This document shows, in pieces, positions 1 to 6,926 of a DNA stretch of 25,844 nucleotides. The notes beneath the pieces are model-generated. The model had not been told where the DNA came from. It did no database searches and saw only the letters and a program-made list of their open reading frames with translations. The stretch lies in contig JAZOLP010000093.1 in NCBI GenBank assembly GCA_045653225.1, positions 1-25,844 on the forward strand, given 5' to 3'. Numbering within the stretch: the first letter of the stretch is position 1; every line of letters begins with the position of its first letter. Both the position numbers and the translations under genes were made by a program. Source of the DNA: Bacilli bacterium. GTDB taxonomy: Bacteria > Bacillota_I > Bacilli_A > ML615J-28 > CAG-313.

Positions 1-1
1 T

Positions 2-472
2 AATGGTCTTGCAACTATTCGATATCTCAATGAAGGAAAAGACGAAGAACTTTTAAAACAATACAATATTTATTGGAGCGCTGTTCATAAGGGCGCAATG
101 TTCGATGCCAGATGCTTTAATATTCCAAAAGAAGAAGTAACCAATCTCATCTTTTGGCGTCAGCTTGACGCGGCACGAAATAGTATGCAAATGGTGGGTC
201 AGGCTTATTTCTCTCACAAAGAGCTTCAAAACAAATCTTGTAGTGATATTCAAAATATGCTTATGGAAAAATACAATATAAATTGGAATGATTTCCCAAC
301 TACTCAAAAAAGAGGTAGTTGTGCAACTAAAGTTCATTATCAAAATCCAGAAGTAGATATAAAAGATGGGGCTGATATTTGTTCCTCTTGGTTTATTGAT
401 AATGAAATTCCTCAGTTTAAAGGTGAAGATAGACAATATATTGAACAACTTATCAATTTTGAGGAGGAATAA
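2..472 (+). CDS. Thg1-like protein (tRNA-His guanylyltransferase / 3'-5' nucleotidyltransferase family), 5'-truncated by window edge
   Basis: The open frame runs in from the window edge. The C-terminal half aligns, by my recollection of eukaryotic Thg1, to ...GFDGRVV.YP....L.DYLSWRQ.D...NN...YNINYNNEP.M.RKGS.... The window shows AMFDARCFNIPKEEVTNLIFWRQLDAARNS...MLMEKYNINWNDFPTTQKRGS. Confidence 0.6.
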   Translation, partial: NGLATIRYLNEGKDEELLKQYNIYWSAVHKGAMFDARCFNIPKEEVTNLIFWRQLDAARNSMQMVGQAYFSHKELQNKSCSDIQNMLMEKYNINWNDFPTTQKRGSCATKVHYQNPEVDIKDGADICSSWFIDNEIPQFKGEDRQYIEQLINFEEE

Positions 473-473
473 T

Positions 474-710
474 ATGAACTCAACTTTTTGTGCATTTTGT
501 AAACACTATCAAGCCCTTCCTGCAAGAGAAGAAAAAATGCATTATCCTTGGGGTGGTTATGATATTCTCTATATTGAAGAGGGTATATGCTCAAAGGAAA
601 ATGTAAAAGTAAATGCAATGTATGAAGCATATTGCAAAAACTTTTGTTTAAAAGAAGAATACGCTAATGAGAGGAATGAAAACTATGAAAATGTATCTGC
701 CGTTTGGTGA
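474..710 (+). CDS. small Cys-rich hypothetical protein (78 aa)
   Basis: ATG at 474 lies 6 nt after a GAGGAGG RBS and in the same frame as the 366..710 ORF. It has CxxC plus further Cys and resembles a zinc-binding protein. Confidence 0.5.
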   Translation: MNSTFCAFCKHYQALPAREEKMHYPWGGYDILYIEEGICSKENVKVNAMYEAYCKNFCLKEEYANERNENYENVSAVW

Positions 711-739
711 GAAGAACTCATAATTATTATAAAAGATAA

Positions 740-776
740 AAACCTTTCTAAATAAAGAAAGGTTTTTTTATTTTTA
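740..776 (+). terminator. rho-independent terminator
   Basis: The stem aaacctttc/gaaaggttt with loop taaataaa is followed by tttttttatttttat. Confidence 0.6.
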
Positions 777-780
777 TAAT

Positions 781-825
781 AAAATATAATATTATATTTA
801 TATAAAGAAAAGGAAAGAAAGAGAG
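781..825 (+). promoter_or_regulatory. recurring phage promoter/RBS motif, copy 1 (aaaatataatattatatttatataaagaaaaggaaaga...)
   Basis: A 38-nt block is identical to 7934-7971 and related to blocks at 5722, 12335, 16003 and 25541. It always sits between a terminator and a start codon. Confidence 0.45.
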
Positions 826-834
826 TGATAAAAT

Positions 835-990
835 ATGAGAACAATAATGTTGGTAACAAATGCGATTTTAAGTGCTGTATCTTGCGCGGGAATTATAGTG
901 AATTTAGTAATGACACATTTTGGATATGCGTGGTTATGTGTTATTCCAATGGTGTATGGAATATTTAATATGATTGCTATAGACGAATAA
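835..990 (+). CDS. small hydrophobic membrane protein (51 aa)
   Basis: It is the first ATG after the promoter motif, preceded by gagagtga. The translation MRTIMLVTNAILSAVSCAGIIVNLVMTHFGYAWLCVIPMVYGIFNMIAIDE is mostly hydrophobic. Confidence 0.45.
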   Translation: MRTIMLVTNAILSAVSCAGIIVNLVMTHFGYAWLCVIPMVYGIFNMIAIDE

Positions 991-1016
991 TATTTGTATA
1001 AAAGGAGTTGATTGTT

Positions 1017-1466
1017 GTGCGTATTTGGCATAAAGATTTAATTTCAGTTTTACCAAGAGAACAATTAGTAGCGCAATGGAGAGAATGTAGCGCAATCGCG
1101 GGAGCCATTAAAAAGAATGGTGAACCAAATCATTTGTTAGTAAATAAAATTATGGATTTTAATTATAATCATTTTATCACATACAGTAAGTTAGTTCGTG
1201 CGGAAATGACCAAAAGAGGATACACAACAATGAACTCTGTTATGGATAAAATCGAAAGTCCATTAATAGAAGAAAGAGTAGAAATTCCGTTTAAAGAACT
1301 TTATTCTTCTTGGCACAATATGAGATATTTAAAACAGTGCTATTATAACTTACAAGAAAAGTTTGATTGCGGTGGTATCTCAAAAGAAGATTGGGCAAGA
1401 ATCGAAAAGAAGATGCATAATTTAGAGGAAGAAAGATATAATCAAATGCAGCTGGGAGGAGAATAA
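1017..1466 (+). CDS. denV: pyrimidine dimer DNA glycosylase (T4 endonuclease V / DenV-like)
   Basis: RIWHKDLISVLPREQLVAQWRECSAIAGAIKK...FITYSKLVRAEMTKRGY is collinear with the T4 EndoV N-terminus ([33 protein letters not shown]...[25 protein letters not shown]). The start is non-ATG: GTG at 1017 lies 9 nt after AAAGGAG, and the tracked TTG at 1008 abuts the RBS. Confidence 0.6.
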   Translation: MRIWHKDLISVLPREQLVAQWRECSAIAGAIKKNGEPNHLLVNKIMDFNYNHFITYSKLVRAEMTKRGYTTMNSVMDKIESPLIEERVEIPFKELYSSWHNMRYLKQCYYNLQEKFDCGGISKEDWARIEKKMHNLEEERYNQMQLGGE

Positions 1467-1469
1467 ATA

Positions 1470-1859
1470 ATGTTAAAAAATAAAACGAAATTTGATACTT
1501 GGATTGTTACTAATCAAGAAGATTTTAAAAAGAACAAAAAAGATTTACTATCTAAAAAATTACCAATTATGTTTTCAGATGATGAAGATAGCTATTATGA
1601 TGAAGTTGGCGGGTATCATTCTTGCGGAACTGGTTGGAATCCCAATGGTATGTGGTGCGGTGAATGTACGAGCTTCAGTTGTCGTGGTTGTTCAAGTGAA
1701 CACAAATGTATAAAAACATTTTTAATTGTTGCAAAAGACGAAGATTATCCAGAAGTAAGAACAACTATAGAAGCTATTGATTTGCAGCACGCAAGACTAG
1801 AAGCTTTCAATAAATATCCAGAATATCACGAAATAGGAGTATGGGAGTGGGAAGAATGA
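1470..1859 (+). CDS. hypothetical Cys-rich protein (129 aa)
   Basis: ORF with a GGGAGGAG RBS. It carries the Cys cluster CGTGWNPNGMWCGECTSFSCRGCSSEHKC. Confidence 0.55.
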   Translation: MLKNKTKFDTWIVTNQEDFKKNKKDLLSKKLPIMFSDDEDSYYDEVGGYHSCGTGWNPNGMWCGECTSFSCRGCSSEHKCIKTFLIVAKDEDYPEVRTTIEAIDLQHARLEAFNKYPEYHEIGVWEWEE

Positions 1860-2017
1860 TAACAATACAAAAAGCTACTGATATGATACTCGAAAGAGTA
1901 GATAGAATTATCGAAATAATTAACACACCTGATTTCTATCAGTTTTTAACTAGTACTGGCGGAGATATAGAAACATATAGAGTGTATAAAAAAGATGGAA
2001 GGATTGGTATAAAATGA
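1856..2017 (+). CDS. small hypothetical protein (53 aa)
   Basis: ATGA overlaps both the upstream and the downstream ORF and fills an otherwise non-coding gap. No RBS was evaluated. Confidence 0.3.
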   Translation: MITIQKATDMILERVDRIIEIINTPDFYQFLTSTGGDIETYRVYKKDGRIGIK

Positions 2018-2184
2018 CATTTACAGAAATTTTAGAATCATTAAAAAGAAGTTGCACACAAGTATTTTGGGAATCTAACCACTTTGCAAAAGAACACGCA
2101 GACACACTTTTGAAATGTGCAACAGAAATTTATATTGCACAGGAAGGCAAAACTCAAATTATTGTAAAGAGAGAGGAGAAATAA
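2014..2184 (+). CDS. small hypothetical protein (56 aa)
   Basis: It has an ATGA overlap with the previous small ORF and ends 2 nt before pncA. The tight packing is typical of phage genes. Confidence 0.3.
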   Translation: MTFTEILESLKRSCTQVFWESNHFAKEHADTLLKCATEIYIAQEGKTQIIVKREEK

Positions 2185-2185
2185 T

Positions 2186-2725
2186 ATGTCAAAAATGTTA
2201 ATTGTAATTGATATGCAAAATGATTTTGTAACAGGTAGTCTTGCAAACCCAGACGCACAAGCTATTATACCAAATATTCAAAAGAAAATTGAAGAATATA
2301 AGAAGAATGGTGATGATATTATCTTTACAAGAGACACTCATACAGTTTCTTATTTAGGTAGTGCGGAAGGTCAGAAACTTCCTGTTGAACATTGTATTGA
2401 TGGAACAAAAGGTTGGGTAGTTGTTGATGAATTAAATCATCCAGAGTATAAGCATATTAACAAATCAACTTTTGGATATCCTTATTGGGGATATGAAGAA
2501 ATGCCAGAAGAAGTAGAATTAGTTGGTACTTGTACAGATATCTGTGTTGTTTCAAATGCTATTCTTATTAAAACACATTTTCCAGATACAAAAATAGTTG
2601 TCGACGCGGCGTGCTGTGCGGGTACCACTCCAGCAAATCACACAGCCGCGCTGATGACAATGAAAGCTTGTCAGATAGATGTAATTAACGAAGGTAATAC
2701 TGTTATAGGCGGAAAGAGAGAGTGA
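2186..2725 (+). CDS. pncA: nicotinamidase / isochorismatase-family cysteine hydrolase
   Basis: The N-terminus MLIVIDMQNDFV and the catalytic-Cys motif GTCTDICV fit the isochorismatase fold. The gene sits immediately upstream of pncB. Confidence 0.75.
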   Translation: MSKMLIVIDMQNDFVTGSLANPDAQAIIPNIQKKIEEYKKNGDDIIFTRDTHTVSYLGSAEGQKLPVEHCIDGTKGWVVVDELNHPEYKHINKSTFGYPYWGYEEMPEEVELVGTCTDICVVSNAILIKTHFPDTKIVVDAACCAGTTPANHTAALMTMKACQIDVINEGNTVIGGKRE

Positions 2726-2731
2726 AGTATA

Positions 2732-3925
2732 ATGATGAAATTAAGTCCTATTGTTGTATCTTTATTAGATACTGATTTATATAAATTTAATATGAATATG
2801 GTAATGTTTCATAAACATACCAATTTAAATGGTGTATATATTTTCAAATGTAGAAATGAAAACATTGTATTTACTTCTGAAATGGTAGAAGAAATTAACG
2901 CACAGATTGATCATCTTTGTACTTTAAGATTTACAGGCGAAGAATTAAATTATTTAAATTCATTAAGATTTATGAAATCTGATTATATTGAATTTCTTCG
3001 CTTATGGCACCCACTCCGCGACTATGTAAAATGTTGCGCGGACGGCAAAGGTGGCTTGTTTTTAGAAGTAACTGGTCCGTTATTTAGTGCTATGCAATTT
3101 GAAATTTATTTACTTGAAATTATTAACGAAGTTTACTTTCGTATGCAATATAACTATTTAGATTTAATAGAATCCGCAAAAGAAAAACTCGAACTTAAAT
3201 TAAAAGGTTTTGAAGAAGGTAAATATAATTTTAATTTCGCAGAATTTGGTTGCCGCAGAAGATTAAGCAGAGAGTGGCAGGATTATGTTTTATCAAAGCT
3301 TCTTACAACTGGACATTGTGTTGGTACTTCAAATGTTTATCTTGCTATGAAATATAAAGTTAAACCTATTGGTACTTATGCACACGAGTATGTTCAAATG
3401 TATCAGGGTATCCCGGGTGTAACTCTTGCCTATACAAATAAAATGGCAATGGAAGAATGGTTTGATGAATTTCAGGGTGACAACGGTACAGCTTTAACAG
3501 ACACTCTTGGAACAGATTTATTCTTAAGAGACTTTAATAAATTACAGGCTATGTGCTATACAGGAGTAAGACACGATAGCGGAGACCCAATAGAATGGGG
3601 TAATAAAATAATTGACCATTATATTAAACTCGGTATCGATCCAAAAACTAAAACTTTATTATTTAGTGACAGTCTTAATTTTGATAAGGCTCAAGAAATT
3701 TATGATTATTTCAAAGATAAAATAAATGTAAGCTTTGGTATTGGAACTTATTTAAGTAATGATACAAATGTTGATGCATTAAATATTGTTATTAAATTAC
3801 AGTATGTAAATGGACATCCAGTAGCAAAGATTAGTGACACACCTGGTAAAGCAATGTGTCAGAATAATGTTTATTTAAAATACTTAAAGAACGCAGTAGC
3901 GTATAGATTGGAGGAGAATATTTAA
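2732..3925 (+). CDS. pncB: nicotinate phosphoribosyltransferase
   Basis: It is collinear with E. coli PncB: LLDTDLYKFNM, FGCRRRLSREWQ, VGTSNVYLA, TYAHEYVQ, ALTDTLGTDLFLRDF, RHDSGDPIEWG, KTLLFSDSLNFDKA, SFGIGT, LNIVIKL..NGHPVAKISDTPGK. It is 397 aa, like PncB and unlike the larger Nampt. Confidence 0.85.
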   Translation: MMKLSPIVVSLLDTDLYKFNMNMVMFHKHTNLNGVYIFKCRNENIVFTSEMVEEINAQIDHLCTLRFTGEELNYLNSLRFMKSDYIEFLRLWHPLRDYVKCCADGKGGLFLEVTGPLFSAMQFEIYLLEIINEVYFRMQYNYLDLIESAKEKLELKLKGFEEGKYNFNFAEFGCRRRLSREWQDYVLSKLLTTGHCVGTSNVYLAMKYKVKPIGTYAHEYVQMYQGIPGVTLAYTNKMAMEEWFDEFQGDNGTALTDTLGTDLFLRDFNKLQAMCYTGVRHDSGDPIEWGNKIIDHYIKLGIDPKTKTLLFSDSLNFDKAQEIYDYFKDKINVSFGIGTYLSNDTNVDALNIVIKLQYVNGHPVAKISDTPGKAMCQNNVYLKYLKNAVAYRLEENI

Positions 3926-4482
3926 TGACAGGAGTAATTTTATTTCGTGCGCAACCATTTCACAATGGACATTTACATATGATTAAAAAGGCTTGTCAAG
4001 ATATGTATCAAATAAATGGCGCATTATATATTTTAGTGGGTAGCGCAGATAAAGTAGGAACAAAAAGAAATCCAATTCCAATTGACTTAAGAATTAATAT
4101 GATAGAGGAAAGTTTAAAAGAAGCTTTAACAGAAGAAGAATATAATTGTGTTTTTGTTTATCCTCTTGCTGATTTAGACGATGAAGCCAATAATACTCAT
4201 AGTTGGGGTAGTTATCTTTACAAAGCTATGCGTGAAGTTTCCGCAGACGAAGATTTTATTATCTACTATAGCGACAACCCAAACATTATGTTAAGTTGGT
4301 TTAATGATGAAATTAGAGAACATATTGCTTTTAAATTTTTACCAAGATATGATGATATTTGTGCGACAGAAGTGCGCAAATGTATTGAAAAAGATTGGTC
4401 AGCAACTCTTTCTACTATTGTACCTGCTCCAGTTTATAATAGAAGAAAATTATTAAAAAAATATATTGAAGAAGGAAAATAA
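3925..4482 (+). CDS. nicotinamide/nicotinate mononucleotide adenylyltransferase (HxGH cytidylyltransferase-like, NadM/NadR type)
   Basis: ILFRAQPFHNGHLHMIK carries the (H/T)xGH nucleotidyltransferase signature in the NadM/NadR context GRFQPFHxGH. The gene lies between pncB and nadE. Confidence 0.7.
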   Translation: MTGVILFRAQPFHNGHLHMIKKACQDMYQINGALYILVGSADKVGTKRNPIPIDLRINMIEESLKEALTEEEYNCVFVYPLADLDDEANNTHSWGSYLYKAMREVSADEDFIIYYSDNPNIMLSWFNDEIREHIAFKFLPRYDDICATEVRKCIEKDWSATLSTIVPAPVYNRRKLLKKYIEEGK

Positions 4483-4484
4483 TA

Positions 4485-5255
4485 ATGAATATAGAAAAAA
4501 CAAAAAGAGAGATTGTTCAATGGATTAAAGACTGGTTCGCGGAAAATGGACCAGATTGTAACGCGATTATTGGCATTAGTGGCGGGAAAGATAGCTCTGT
4601 CGCGGCCGCCCTTTGCGTAGAAGCTCTGGGCAAAGATAGAGTTTATGGTATTATGATGCCAAATGGCAAGCAAGTGGATATAGATGATTCTTATAAGATT
4701 TGTAAACATTTAGATATTCCGTGTATGACAGCAAATATTGAACCTATCTATAGTACTTTTGTAAAAGCCATTACTTATAATGACGCACATTGGTTTAATG
4801 GAAAATGGAATGTTCTTATACCAGGTGGACTTTCTGAGCAGGCAGAAACAAACCTTCCTCCCCGTATTCGTATGACCACACTCTATGCTATCTCTCAATC
4901 TCTTAATGGTAGGGTAGTTTGTACAGATAATCTTTCAGAATCATATATAGGTTATTCTACTCGTTGGGGAGATAATGTAGGTGACTTCGCGCCTCTTGCT
5001 CATTTAACAAGTGAAGAAGTTGTTGCTCTTGGCGATGCTTGCGGCCTCCCGTACGAATTAACACACAAAACCCCAACAGATGGACTTTGTGGAAAAACAG
5101 ATGAAGAAAATTTTGGTTTTACATATGAAACATTGAATAAGTATATTTTAACGGGACAGTGCGAAGATACAGAAGCAAAAGAAAAAATAGATGCAATGCA
5201 TTTAAAAAATGCTTTTAAATTAAAACCTATTCCCGCGTATATCCCACATAGATAG
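4485..5255 (+). CDS. nadE: NH3-dependent NAD+ synthetase
   Basis: It has the PP-loop IGISGGKDSSVAAALC (SGGxDS), and its length and collinearity match NadE. Confidence 0.85.
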   Translation: MNIEKTKREIVQWIKDWFAENGPDCNAIIGISGGKDSSVAAALCVEALGKDRVYGIMMPNGKQVDIDDSYKICKHLDIPCMTANIEPIYSTFVKAITYNDAHWFNGKWNVLIPGGLSEQAETNLPPRIRMTTLYAISQSLNGRVVCTDNLSESYIGYSTRWGDNVGDFAPLAHLTSEEVVALGDACGLPYELTHKTPTDGLCGKTDEENFGFTYETLNKYILTGQCEDTEAKEKIDAMHLKNAFKLKPIPAYIPHR

Positions 5256-5267
5256 GAGTGAACAAGT

Positions 5268-5717
5268 ATGAAAGTAATCGATAGTTTTGAAGGCGAGTTT
5301 GAATTTTTAAGTAACTTTTTTTATAGTCCGCTATACTTTGCTGGTATTTGGTTTTCAACAGTAGAGCATTTCTTTCAAGCTAATAAATTATTTTCAAAAA
5401 ACGAAGAAATGTTTTATAAAATTGCTACTGCAGACACTCCTGGTAAAGCAAAAAGATTAGGTAGAAAATGTGAATTGCGCGAGGATTGGGATAACATAAA
5501 AGATACAGTTATGTTAATTGCTTTAAGAAAAAAATTTAGCAATTCTGTGTTAAAAAAGAAGTTACTTGCTACTGGCGATGCGCTCTTAATAGAAGGCAAT
5601 ACCTGGCACGATAACTATTGGGGCGATTGTAAATGTGAAAAATGCAAAGATATAAAAGGAGAGAATAGACTTGGACAGCTTTTAATGCAAGTAAGAGAAG
5701 AGTTGAAAAATAAATAA
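5268..5717 (+). CDS. NADAR / YbiA-like (DUF1768) domain protein
   Basis: FLSNFFYSP...FSTVEHFFQA...GNTWHDNYWG match the YbiA/NADAR family signature E..FLSNF ... W..N.WG. Confidence 0.65.
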   Translation: MKVIDSFEGEFEFLSNFFYSPLYFAGIWFSTVEHFFQANKLFSKNEEMFYKIATADTPGKAKRLGRKCELREDWDNIKDTVMLIALRKKFSNSVLKKKLLATGDALLIEGNTWHDNYWGDCKCEKCKDIKGENRLGQLLMQVREELKNK

Positions 5718-5721
5718 AATA

Positions 5722-5755
5722 ATAATATTATATATATACAAAGTAAAGAGAGGAG
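5722..5755 (+). promoter_or_regulatory. promoter/RBS motif, copy 2 (ataatattatatatatacaaagtaaagagaggag)
   Basis: It is related to the 781 and 7934 motifs and sits directly upstream of the RNA ligase ATG. No terminator precedes it. Confidence 0.35.
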
Positions 5756-5762
5756 AATTAAA

Positions 5763-6926
5763 ATGATAATCAATGACAAAAGAGCTTTAGCTTATACTGC
5801 ACGAGTTGGAGAAATTTCAAAAATCGAAGGCGCAGACAATATCGAGCTTATCACAGTTTTAGGCTGGAAAGTTATTGCTAAAATCGGAGAGTTTAAAGAA
5901 GGCGACCTTTGTGTTTACTTTGAAATCGATTCAAAGCTACCAGAAGCAGAATGGTCAGAGTTTATGAGAGCAAGACACTTTAAAGTTAAAACTATGAAAC
6001 TTGGTAAATTTAAAGTGATTTCACAGGGTTTAGCTTTACCTGTATCTGCTTTTGATAAAACAATACCGACAGAAGAAGGCATCGATGTTACAGAATTACT
6101 TGGAGTTACTTATTCTGTAGAAGAAGATAATGTTCGTAAATCAAACGGAGATCCAAATGTTAAGTATCGTTCTATGGCGGCCCGCCATCCAAAATTATTC
6201 AAACAGCCTTGGGCAAGATGGATGATGAGACGCGCGTGGGGTAGAAAGGTTATGTTTCTTTTCTTTGGTAGAAAAAAAGATAACCCTAAAAAATTCCCTT
6301 CTTTTGTTTCTAAAACAGATGAAGAAAGAGTTGAAAACCAGCCTTGGAGAATAGGCGATGGTCAGACATATTTATGCACAGAAAAACTCGATGGTACATC
6401 TTGTACTTACGCTCTTGAAAGAAAAGGTAGAAATAGATTTGAATTTTATGTTTGTTCAAGAAACATAAGACAGAAAGATGAAAAACAGTCTTGCTACCAC
6501 GACCATAATATTTACTGGGATTTAGCTTTTAAATATAATATCGAAGAACATTTAAAAGATTACCTTAATATTCACAAAGATTACAAATGGGTTTGTATTC
6601 AGGGCGAAGGTGTTGGCGCTGTTCAGGGCAATCCACTTAAATTAAAAGAAGATGACTTATATGTGTTTAACTTTATTACTTCTAAAAATGGTAGACACAA
6701 CTCTTTTGAAGGAAGAGATATTATAGAAAGCTGGAAAATGAAATGGGTTCCAATCCTTGGTCAGGTTCAGATGCCAGATACTATGGAAGAACTCAAAGAA
6801 CTTGCTACTGGTAAATCAGTAGTTAACCCAGATGTAATGAGAGAAGGTCTCGTATACAGAACAATGGACGGAAAAGATTCATTTAAAAATGTTTCAAGAG
6901 AATATTTATTAAAACATAATATGTAA
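5763..6926 (+). CDS. ATP-dependent RNA ligase (nucleotidyltransferase superfamily)
   Basis: It has the lysine-adenylylation motif CTEKLDGTSC (KxDG). The N-terminal region resembles an OB/tRNA-binding-like domain (GADNIELITVLGWKVIAK) of the Pab1020/DRB0094-type RNA ligases. Confidence 0.7.
   Translation: MIINDKRALAYTARVGEISKIEGADNIELITVLGWKVIAKIGEFKEGDLCVYFEIDSKLPEAEWSEFMRARHFKVKTMKLGKFKVISQGLALPVSAFDKTIPTEEGIDVTELLGVTYSVEEDNVRKSNGDPNVKYRSMAARHPKLFKQPWARWMMRRAWGRKVMFLFFGRKKDNPKKFPSFVSKTDEERVENQPWRIGDGQTYLCTEKLDGTSCTYALERKGRNRFEFYVCSRNIRQKDEKQSCYHDHNIYWDLAFKYNIEEHLKDYLNIHKDYKWVCIQGEGVGAVQGNPLKLKEDDLYVFNFITSKNGRHNSFEGRDIIESWKMKWVPILGQVQMPDTMEELKELATGKSVVNPDVMREGLVYRTMDGKDSFKNVSREYLLKHNM

Follow-up and report, generated by a model that had tools for sequence, protein, structure and literature searches.

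A Thg1-like protein gene fragment from a large phage: conserved core, variable substrate-facing segments and a possible role in tRNA 5'-end repair

A 25,844-nucleotide stretch of contig JAZOLP010000093.1 (NCBI GenBank assembly GCA_045653225.1, listed as a Bacilli bacterium; forward strand, positions 1 to 25,844), referred to below as the window, opens at its left edge with the 3' part of a gene for a Thg1-like protein (TLP). The best explanation of its sequence is that this fragment belongs to an intact phage TLP of the bacterial/archaeal repair type. By analogy with characterised TLPs, and with a probability slightly above even, the protein would act as a template-dependent polymerase for the repair of tRNA 5' ends, this being one function among several that a large Clostridia phage would have for repair or counter-defence, each independent of the others. 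To our knowledge, Thg1-like enzymes are the only known polymerases that work in the 3'-5' direction. What can be regarded as established at the sequence level is the family membership and TLP subtype of the fragment, the conservation of its substrate-contact residues and, in relatives, of the catalytic residues, and the presence of intact motifs in the repair enzymes encoded further downstream. The window TLP is genuine, but it is an unremarkable addition to a family that annotations already record for many large phages. As this family has been annotated in more than 130 phage genomes and the idea of tRNA repair was published in 2010 and 2021, the locus alone changes little. Its clade is well populated, with 257 IMG/VR stretches and thousands of metagenomic proteins, including full-length relatives that can be folded, and the frozen chemistry of these proteins as opposed to their sharply varying substrate-reading parts leads to a concrete hypothesis on specificity. 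Judged from gene neighbourhoods, the case for a 'tRNA repair operon' is not as strong as the single window would make it look.

Identification of the gene fragment

Positions 2-472 of the forward strand (frame 2) are open over 156 codons up to a TAA stop (470-472), without internal stop or frameshift, and the other two forward frames contain many stops across the same region. As the open frame exits the window at its left edge, the fragment is the 3' portion of the gene. It corresponds to approximately the C-terminal 58% of a protein of about 270 amino acids (aa). In an alignment with the TLP of Bacillus thuringiensis (BtTLP; PDB 4KGK), the first residue encoded in the window falls at about residue 115, so that approximately 114 codons with the palm metal ligands lie off the left edge, and the metal-binding Asp pair (D30 and D75 in BtTLP) must be encoded upstream of the window. 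An earlier note on this DNA, made from its letters alone, had assigned a Thg1-like 3'-5' nucleotidyltransferase to positions 1-472; the open frame is there, although it begins at base 2 and not at base 1. The gene and the features next to it are as follows.

2-472, forward strand: 3' part of the TLP gene, 156 codons plus TAA, with matches to 4KGK and phrog_4717.
2-88, forward strand: end portion (aa 1-29) of a hypervariable insertion that separates the last palm strand from the long palm helix.
92-331, forward strand: conserved core (aa 31-110) with the FDAR strand, the WRQxDAxRNSxQM helix, INWND and KRG; core codons are D35 (104-106), R37 (110-112), R59-N60 (176-181) and M64 (191-193), as well as N94 (in INWND) and K103 (in KRG).
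332-388, forward strand: hypervariable β-hairpin (aa 111-129), VHYQNPEVDIKDGADICSS, matching the position of the tRNA-elbow hairpin in the TLP of M. acetivorans (MaTLP).
389-469, forward strand: C-terminal segment (aa 130-156), conserved as W-IDxEIPxFKGxxRxYIExLI and ending in an acidic tail.
474-710, forward strand: cysteine-rich open reading frame (ORF) of 78 aa, starting one base past the TLP stop, with a GAGGAGG ribosome-binding site.
738-767, forward strand: terminator-like hairpin, a 12-bp stem followed by a T-run, closing the unit of the TLP gene and the 78-aa ORF.

A phmmer comparison of the fragment with all PDB sequences returned BtTLP (4KGK, E = 6.2e-27, fragment aa 32-152), MaTLP (5AXK, E = 2.9e-4) and, weakly, yeast Thg1 (E = 0.06), and in the PHROGs database the fragment matched phrog_4717, 'tRNA-His guanylyltransferase' (E = 6.1e-36). 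The matches to 4KGK and phrog_4717 bear out the assignment to the Thg1 family. The motifs quoted in the earlier note were all found (FDARCF at aa 34-39, LIFWRQLDAARNS at aa 49-61 and EKYNINWNDFPTTQKRGS at aa 89-106); the alignment of 150 aa that it claimed does match the solved TLPs, but over approximately 121 aa (32-152), the first 31 aa being part of a lineage-specific insertion that has no equivalent in BtTLP. The profile search that it had proposed gave a mixed answer. Thg1C (PF14413) scored 23.2 bits with the fragment, under the gathering score of 26.3, and PF04446 did not match because most of that domain, including both metal-binding motifs, lies outside the window. Pfam alone would not have passed the fragment, and a search of NCBIfam with the fragment gave no match. 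Relatives of 258-298 aa scored 97-111 bits against PF04446 (cut-off 29.2), and the PF04446 matches of full-length relatives extend into the FDAR strand.

A protein search yielded 3,512 relatives, and homologues were retrieved by tblastn from 137 GenBank phage records, mostly of large phages, with identities of at most 55% (42-47% for cultured phages). The closest full-length relative, P0010 (locus L006), shares 91% DNA identity with window positions 2-322, insertion included; it matches BtTLP with E = 2.3e-60 and the Pfam Thg1 family with 105 bits. When its AlphaFold model (pLDDT 83.5, pTM 0.85) was compared with the PDB by means of Foldseek, the top 32 matches were all Thg1 or TLP structures, BtTLP being the best (4KGM, E = 3.5e-21, TM-score 0.83 on the target). 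The predicted fold, an RNA recognition motif (RRM)-like palm plus the C-terminal domain, is thus that of the family, as modelled on the proxy P0010 and not on the window protein itself. The catalytic residues are present in the aligned relatives (Asp34 in 46/46, Asp79 in 87/88 and Glu80 in 86/88), whose metal ligands align with those of eukaryotic Thg1; the window's own copies would be encoded beyond its edge. The earlier note had named a loss of the palm-domain carboxylates as grounds for refutation, and the protein withstands this test only by proxy, through these relatives.

Conserved core and TLP subtype

Conservation was assessed in an alignment of 117 sequences, column entropy being expressed in bits. 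Most positions of aa 31-110 and aa 130-151 have an entropy below 1 bit, and every family-invariant core residue is present in the window fragment. The FDAR residues D35 and R37, invariant in the 117 sequences, form the previously described DxR signature with which the last palm strand begins (PMC2904730). Similarly, W130, D133, P137 and R144 are invariant in the C-terminal segment, which aligns with residues 217-238 of BtTLP.

As judged from its residues, the fragment is a repair-type TLP and not a eukaryotic Thg1. It reads RNSMQM where yeast and human Thg1 have HINNLYN, of which the Asn is needed for adenylylation in yeast, and M64 aligns with M158 of BtTLP, a position that is Asn in eukaryotes (PMC3701042). 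In addition, R59 and N60 (conserved in 100% and 99% of the family, respectively) align with R136 and N137 of MaTLP, the pair that holds the 5' nucleotide of the tRNA and the templating C72 in the crystal complex (PMC4820378). Characterised bacterial and archaeal TLPs perform Watson-Crick-templated addition, with a kinetic preference for 5'-truncated tRNA over N-1 addition (PMC3061083).

Among the solved structures, BtTLP (4KGK/4KGM) is the best relative by both sequence and fold, with approximately 45% identity. Common to both proteins are the FDxR strand, INWND, KRG, the C-terminal W-xDxExP and the WRQxDAxxNSxxM helix, in which the Met is of the TLP type; BtTLP is itself a template-dependent 3'-5' polymerase preferring 5'-truncated tRNAs (PMC3061083). 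It differs from the window TLP in being chromosomal instead of viral, in its hairpin Arg, for which the window has Cys, and in the length of the insertion discussed below. MaTLP (5AXK-5AXN, including a tRNA complex) keeps the R/N pair and the position of the elbow β-hairpin, but it matches the fragment weakly, and the hairpin sequence of the window is unrelated and lacks the Arg. Eukaryotic Thg1 (human 3OTB, Candida 3WBZ and yeast 5XOX) has the same fold and two-metal palm chemistry, with approximately 20% identity; the G that it places opposite A73 is not templated, and recognition of the His anticodon takes place across a tetramer, whereas TLPs are template-dependent (PMC3061083, PMC4820378). 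The phage members of phrog_4717, from the Bacillus phages TimeGriffin, Goe8, G and BM10/BM15 and the Staphylococcus phage PMBT8, belong to the same family as the window TLP, and published work mentions phage Thg1 homologues as enzymes that may modify or repair tRNA (PMC6292376, PMC7824862). Unlike these annotated phage TLPs, the window lineage occurs in gut Clostridia-type hosts, with its gene in an island for nicotinamide adenine dinucleotide (NAD) salvage and RNA repair.

Hypervariable insertion and hairpin

Two segments vary strongly within this family. The insertion, of which the window holds the tail, measures 23-54 aa in the phage family versus approximately 8 residues in BtTLP, and its column entropy is mostly 2.3-4 bits. 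In P0010, the model shows it as a helix-loop-helix by which the long palm helix is extended (block-mean pLDDT 84-98). The hairpin, with a column entropy of 1.5-3.5 bits, comprises a segment of 22 residues in the window and of 7-39 aa across the family. In MaTLP, this hairpin is flexible, binds the tRNA elbow and measures the length of the acceptor stem, and its weak conservation among TLPs in general has already been noted (PMC4820378).

Pairs of sequences with a core identity of at least 90% have a median identity of 36% in the insertion and 50% in the hairpin; as read from these alignments, both segments are exchanged or replaced rather than drifting. This cassette-like variation of insertion and hairpin on near-identical cores is a new element, as is the unusual tRNA-His that is found near the TLP gene in some relatives. 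As a speculative and rather unlikely extension, the two cassette modules may represent the signature of an arms race, by which the polymerase would be retargeted to RNA damaged by local host nucleases, or would evade a host factor that blocks repair, some lineages targeting the phage's own U-1:A73 tRNA-His fused to tRNA-Pro.

RNA-repair genes and their recurrence in related loci

The earlier note had mentioned an RNA ligase and a polynucleotide kinase/phosphatase pair, and the window does encode an RNA ligase, a P-loop polynucleotide kinase and two metallophosphoesterases, all with intact motifs and family matches. These genes and the other assigned genes that are referred to below are as follows.

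2186-2725: isochorismatase/PncA-like protein of the NAD route.
2732-3925: NAPRTase of the NAD route.
3925-4482: NadD-like adenylyltransferase of the NAD route.
4485-5255: NAD synthase of the NAD route.
5268-5717: NADAR protein, following the NAD synthase.
5763-6926, forward strand: RNA ligase with an N-terminal OB domain and a nucleotidyltransferase domain, of the Naegleria gruberi type (NgrRnl, Rnl5-like).
8084-8752, forward strand: λ-phosphatase-like metallophosphoesterase with the motifs DLH, GDCTDRG, GNHE and GH.
12947-13282, forward strand: zinc-finger ORF (phrog_1257, E = 4e-11), overlapping the start of the kinase gene.
13279-13764, forward strand: kinase of the P-loop polynucleotide-kinase family, with GIPGSGKT.
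13757-14359, forward strand: second metallophosphoesterase, with DLH, GD, GNHD and GH (phrog_547, E = 2e-44).
24593-25438: Amidase_2 endolysin.

The ligase (PF21189 and PF09414; phrog_968, E = 5e-63; PDB 5COT, E = 6.9e-38; motif I KLDG at K208) is a candidate for the sealing enzyme of the window's RNA-repair toolkit. Members of the Naegleria gruberi RNA ligase family seal nicks in duplex RNA. The phosphoesterase encoded at 8084-8752 (PF00149; phrog_246; phrog_8238; PDB 1G5B, E = 3e-10) is a candidate for 3'-end healing, although it may instead be a protein phosphatase. The kinase (PF13671; phrog_505 'polynucleotide kinase', E = 1e-18; PDB PSTK, E = 5e-8, and T4 PNK, E = 4e-3) is a candidate for a 5'-OH kinase; the 5'-phosphate that the TLP and the ligase both require would come from it. 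The family phrog_8238, listed as 'RNA ligase' (737 positions), is matched by the kinase over positions 1-152 and by the phosphoesterase encoded at 8084-8752 over positions 175-349. The zinc-finger, kinase and second phosphoesterase genes (12947-14359) overlap by 4 and 8 nucleotides (nt) and recur as a trio in the loci L030, L039, L081 and L102; the second phosphoesterase had no sequence match in the PDB. This trio looks like a split bacterial Pnkp-type end-healing enzyme with an additional zinc-finger subunit.

The same three predicted activities, namely a 5' kinase, a λ-phosphatase-type phosphoesterase and an ATP-dependent RNA ligase, are found in T4 Pnkp with Rnl1/Rnl2 and in Clostridium thermocellum Pnkp. 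In contrast with those systems, the window carries them on separate genes, with a gap of 6.3 kb between ligase and kinase, and its ligase is of the NgrRnl and not of the Rnl1/Rnl2 type. We know of no requirement for a Thg1-like enzyme in either of these healing-sealing systems.

The repair set recurs, in shuffled order, beside the TLP gene in L007 (a 146.5-kb contig), L081, L030, L039, L013 and L102. More broadly, a shuffled accessory island, in which the TLP gene is accompanied by subsets of YqeY, NAD-salvage genes, ligase, kinase trio, Major Vault Protein (MVP)-like protein and flotillin, occurs in about a dozen IMG/VR loci as well as in L007-9 and L102. This is consistent with a shared theme of repair or counter-defence, not with an operon. 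A tRNA-repair interpretation would be plausible, and it has already been published in outline, in 2010 when Thg1 genes were found linked to those for polynucleotide kinase, RNA ligase and Macro-domain proteins and a tRNA-repair role was proposed (PMC2904730), and in 2021 when Thg1 was listed among the RNA-repair enzymes in a survey of jumbo phages (PMC7824862).

A gene with a YqeY domain (PF09424) is located upstream of the TLP gene, immediately so in most cases, in L001 (3701-4144), L003 (24-416), L007-9 (9314-9763 in L007), L013 (approximately 9127), L029 (approximately 9133) and L081 (approximately 7796). Given its presence in these relatives, it probably sits just past the left edge of the window as well. 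The YqeY domain is a tRNA-binding module in GatB, where it forms the tail domain, and the YqeY protein may be an RNA-binding partner of the TLP.

Phage origin and host

The phage setting of the gene, also proposed in the earlier note, is borne out by the presence in the window of an amidase endolysin, PhoH and a DenV-like glycosylase, and by relatives on viral contigs of IMG/VR. In that database, 257 stretches encode TLPs that are 55-68% identical, and the 80 that were examined lie mostly on viral contigs of 90-200 kb. The 146.5-kb contig L007 carries nearly the same gene set as the window in a different order. Hallmark structural genes were searched for in the window, and no capsid, portal or terminase gene was found; the phage origin rests on the endolysin, PhoH, the PHROG matches and the relatives on viral contigs. 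A megablast search with window positions 1-6000 against 50,697 phage records gave no match, the phage being without a close cultured relative, and it is a large virus of the class of approximately 150 kb.

Relatives were also found in bacterial assemblies, namely of Lacrimispora (including the chromosome of Lacrimispora sp. HJ-01) and Robinsoniella, and in metagenome-assembled genomes of Ruminococcus, Lachnospiraceae and Clostridium, and many of these 'bacterial' loci carry the same phage accessory genes. A host of the gut Clostridia type fits these observations, and both the guanine plus cytosine (GC) content of the window (33%) and its protein with an S-layer-homology (SLH) domain are compatible with it.

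Putative function and alternative explanations

If the complete protein behaves like BtTLP and MaTLP, it would bind a 5'-truncated tRNA, the 5'-monophosphate of which would then be activated with ATP or GTP; 3'-5' addition of nucleotides would follow, with the 3' strand of the acceptor stem as the template, and would halt once the stem has its full length. As the TLP occurs in a shuffled region with end-healing enzymes, an RNA ligase and NAD regeneration, its likeliest role would be the maintenance of tRNA 5' ends in the infected cell. In this proposal, we infer that the enzyme is active, that tRNA is its substrate and that a host nuclease causes the damage.

Several findings weigh against a repair role of this kind. 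The ligase and kinase genes lie 5.3 kb and 12.8 kb from the TLP gene, with a DNA glycosylase gene and the NAD-salvage cluster between, and the TLP gene is transcriptionally separated from them by the terminator-like hairpin. Linkage was assessed in 80 IMG/VR loci centred on TLP homologues, taken from the 257 stretches and covering ±10 kb each. Homologues of the window's ligase, kinase and phosphoesterase were found near the TLP gene in 4-8 of these loci (tblastn), which is no more than random placement would give, as ±10 kb represents approximately 13% of a 150-kb genome. Unbiased clustering revealed unannotated families, Pol III α and adenylosuccinate synthetase as the commonest neighbours. 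Moreover, the window hairpin has Cys127 (TGT, 380-382) at the column of MaTLP R215 and the corresponding Arg of BtTLP, the alignment in the hairpin segment being uncertain; this Arg was reported as 'completely conserved' in the published TLP set and is important for tRNA binding in MaTLP (PMC4820378). Some close relatives retain a hairpin stump of 7 residues, and when MaTLP was given an equivalent short hairpin, binding of truncated tRNA was nearly abolished (PMC4820378). Exact-DNA scans of viral and metagenome contig collections gave no match for the window DNA, so that the N-terminal catalytic half was not recovered, and no assay of any phage TLP was found in the literature. Also, neither for the host nor for other organisms are we aware of a defence nuclease that trims the 5' end of tRNA.

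The earlier note had gone further in proposing a dedicated unit for tRNA 5'- and 3'-end repair that includes the TLP, a claim with which the gene distances, the terminator and the poor linkage across relatives do not agree. Likewise, a conserved linkage between TLP and RNA-repair genes as a general rule was considered and rejected, on the basis of the 4-8 loci out of 80, the neighbour clustering and the cultured phages PMBT8 and TimeGriffin, in which the TLP gene lies among hypothetical genes. Exact-protein look-ups with three genes near the TLP gene gave no match.

It is possible, but unlikely, that the enzyme adds the -1 nucleotide of tRNA-His, and so keeps phage or host tRNA-His chargeable, instead of serving general repair. 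The homologues annotated in GenBank phages are all named tRNA-His guanylyltransferase, and MaTLP can also bind tRNA-His in a second mode, which depends on the anticodon (PMC4820378); of the three residues assigned to its anticodon site, N179 and R188 are kept or conservatively replaced in the fragment (N94 and K103), and the third, F174, aligns with M88. Furthermore, a tRNA-His(GTG) gene occurs on three IMG/VR contigs, two of which (L013 and L029, among the 80 loci) have it 5-7.5 kb upstream of the TLP gene, and since BtTLP can add U-1 opposite A73 in vitro (PMC3061083), a role in tRNA-His maturation is conceivable in the lineage of L013, L029 and L093. However, within ±10 kb of the TLP gene, tRNA-His is present in just 2/80 loci and any tRNA in 11/80, no tRNA is encoded in the 25.8-kb window or near the TLP gene of PMBT8 or TimeGriffin, and the Bacillus phage BM10 has, besides its TLP, 17 tRNAs among which tRNA-His is lacking (PMC6292376). 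In L013 and L029, the -1 nucleotide is encoded in the genome, so that there is no evident need to add it after transcription; in bacterial hosts, G-1 is genomically encoded, and the characterised TLPs favour repair substrates (PMC3061083). A somewhat more doubtful alternative is a substrate other than the tRNA acceptor stem, whereby the enzyme would extend or activate the 5' ends of other structured RNAs, for instance by filling gaps in duplex RNA that are later closed by the NgrRnl-type ligase, or by making App- or Gpp-activated 5' ends, the variable insertion and hairpin setting the target. This would agree with the cassette-swapping of the substrate-facing segments between cores that are at least 90% identical, with a co-resident ligase from a family that seals nicks in duplex RNA, with the expectation that variants devoid of the hairpin, P0010 for example, would not measure tRNA at the elbow as MaTLP does (PMC4820378), and with a ligation-assisting role of 5'-App ends floated before (PMC2904730). 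Against it, direct evidence of a non-tRNA substrate is absent from the TLP locus, the residues for the tRNA 5' end and the templating base (R59 and N60) are invariant, and hairpin residues are poorly conserved even in bona fide tRNA-repair TLPs (PMC4820378), so that variability alone does not imply new substrates.

Finally, a decaying or inactive gene copy, or a window of bacterial rather than viral origin, is highly improbable. Such an explanation could draw on the off-window N-terminus and the Cys at the hairpin Arg position, and on the relatives in bacterial assemblies (the Lacrimispora sp. HJ-01 chromosome among them) together with the lack of capsid, portal and terminase genes in the window. 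Yet all 156 codons are open with every invariant residue in place, and the downstream 78-aa gene is under purifying selection. Cys127 was rejected as a sign of inactivation, as the column is naturally variable, Arg occurring in 50% of the family and His, Lys or Ile in close relatives. A bacterial origin is opposed by the endolysin and PhoH, by the gene set that is common to the 146.5-kb contig and the IMG/VR viral contigs, and by the phage accessory genes in many of the 'bacterial' loci.

tRNA genes in related loci

In L013 (2397-2546), L029 (5067-5216) and L093 (6704-6853), a tRNA-Pro(TGG) gene and a tRNA-His(GTG) gene abut without any spacer, a pattern that in this exact form was found in only three IMG/VR contigs; L013 and L029 are among the closest IMG/VR relatives of the window. 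The tRNA-His in these three loci has a T at -1 that pairs with A73, resulting in an acceptor stem of 8 bp, instead of G-1:C73, and no CCA is encoded. A blastn search of phages with the 83-nt tRNA-His returned only short matches to the T-arm of other tRNAs. The adjacent tRNA-Gln(TTG) measures 84-85 nt in L013 and L029 and 74 nt in L093, and tRNA-Cys(GCA) measures 82 nt; the longer forms of tRNA-Gln and tRNA-Cys have unusually long extra arms. In the window, no Rfam RNAs were found.

The downstream 78-aa ORF

The ORF that follows the TLP gene had no match in Pfam or PHROG. An identical 78-aa protein is encoded directly behind the Thg1 gene in five contigs, in four of which the Thg1 protein is full-length (278-297 aa). 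Compared with these five contigs, the 78-aa gene differs at 5-6 nt, all synonymous, which indicates that it is under purifying selection, whereas the adjoining TLP DNA differs at 52-62 of 386 positions in the same contigs, these relatives being approximately 90% identical. The sharp step in divergence at the boundary between the two genes points to a recombination mosaic. The possibility that the ORF encodes a dedicated partner of the TLP was rejected, as none of the 80 IMG/VR loci contains it, and L007 and L010 have unrelated small ORFs behind the TLP gene; as a neighbour, it is specific to this lineage instead of accompanying TLPs in general. Terminator-like sites such as the one at 738-767 are more frequent than expected in this region, with three in 2.8 kb versus 0.7 expected.

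Other genes of the window

Positions 2186-5717 encode a complete route from nicotinamide to NAD on one strand, with the NADAR gene at its end. In L001 and L081, NAMPT and phosphoribosyl pyrophosphate (PRPP) synthetase take the place of this route. Pathways for NAD reconstitution are known phage counter-defences. Similar Preiss-Handler clusters have been reported in gut jumbo phages (PMC11662467).

An 815-aa protein (9842-12289) contains MVP shoulder, Vault_3 and SPFH domains, and a 496-aa SPFH/flotillin-like protein is encoded at 14372-15862. Among GenBank phages, the MVP-like protein was found in only three 'huge phage' records (LR756500/1/3), with 37-44% identity, and its gene recurs beside the TLP gene in many of the related loci. 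The PhoH-like ATPase is fused to a PIN-domain nuclease in a protein of 406 aa (16740-17960; phrog_2765, E = 4e-74). At 8825-9820, a papain-like cysteine peptidase is joined to the SLH domain, an arrangement that points to a host whose wall carries an S-layer or is SLH-anchored (Clostridia or Negativicutes), the protein possibly being a wall-associated lytic or virion protein. Four consecutive ORFs at 18012-23583 (676, 108, 523 and 545 aa) had no match in PHROG, Pfam or cultured phages, apart from a β-roll repeat of the 'ice-binding' type in the last one; situated upstream of the endolysin gene, they may be tail-fibre or adhesin genes.

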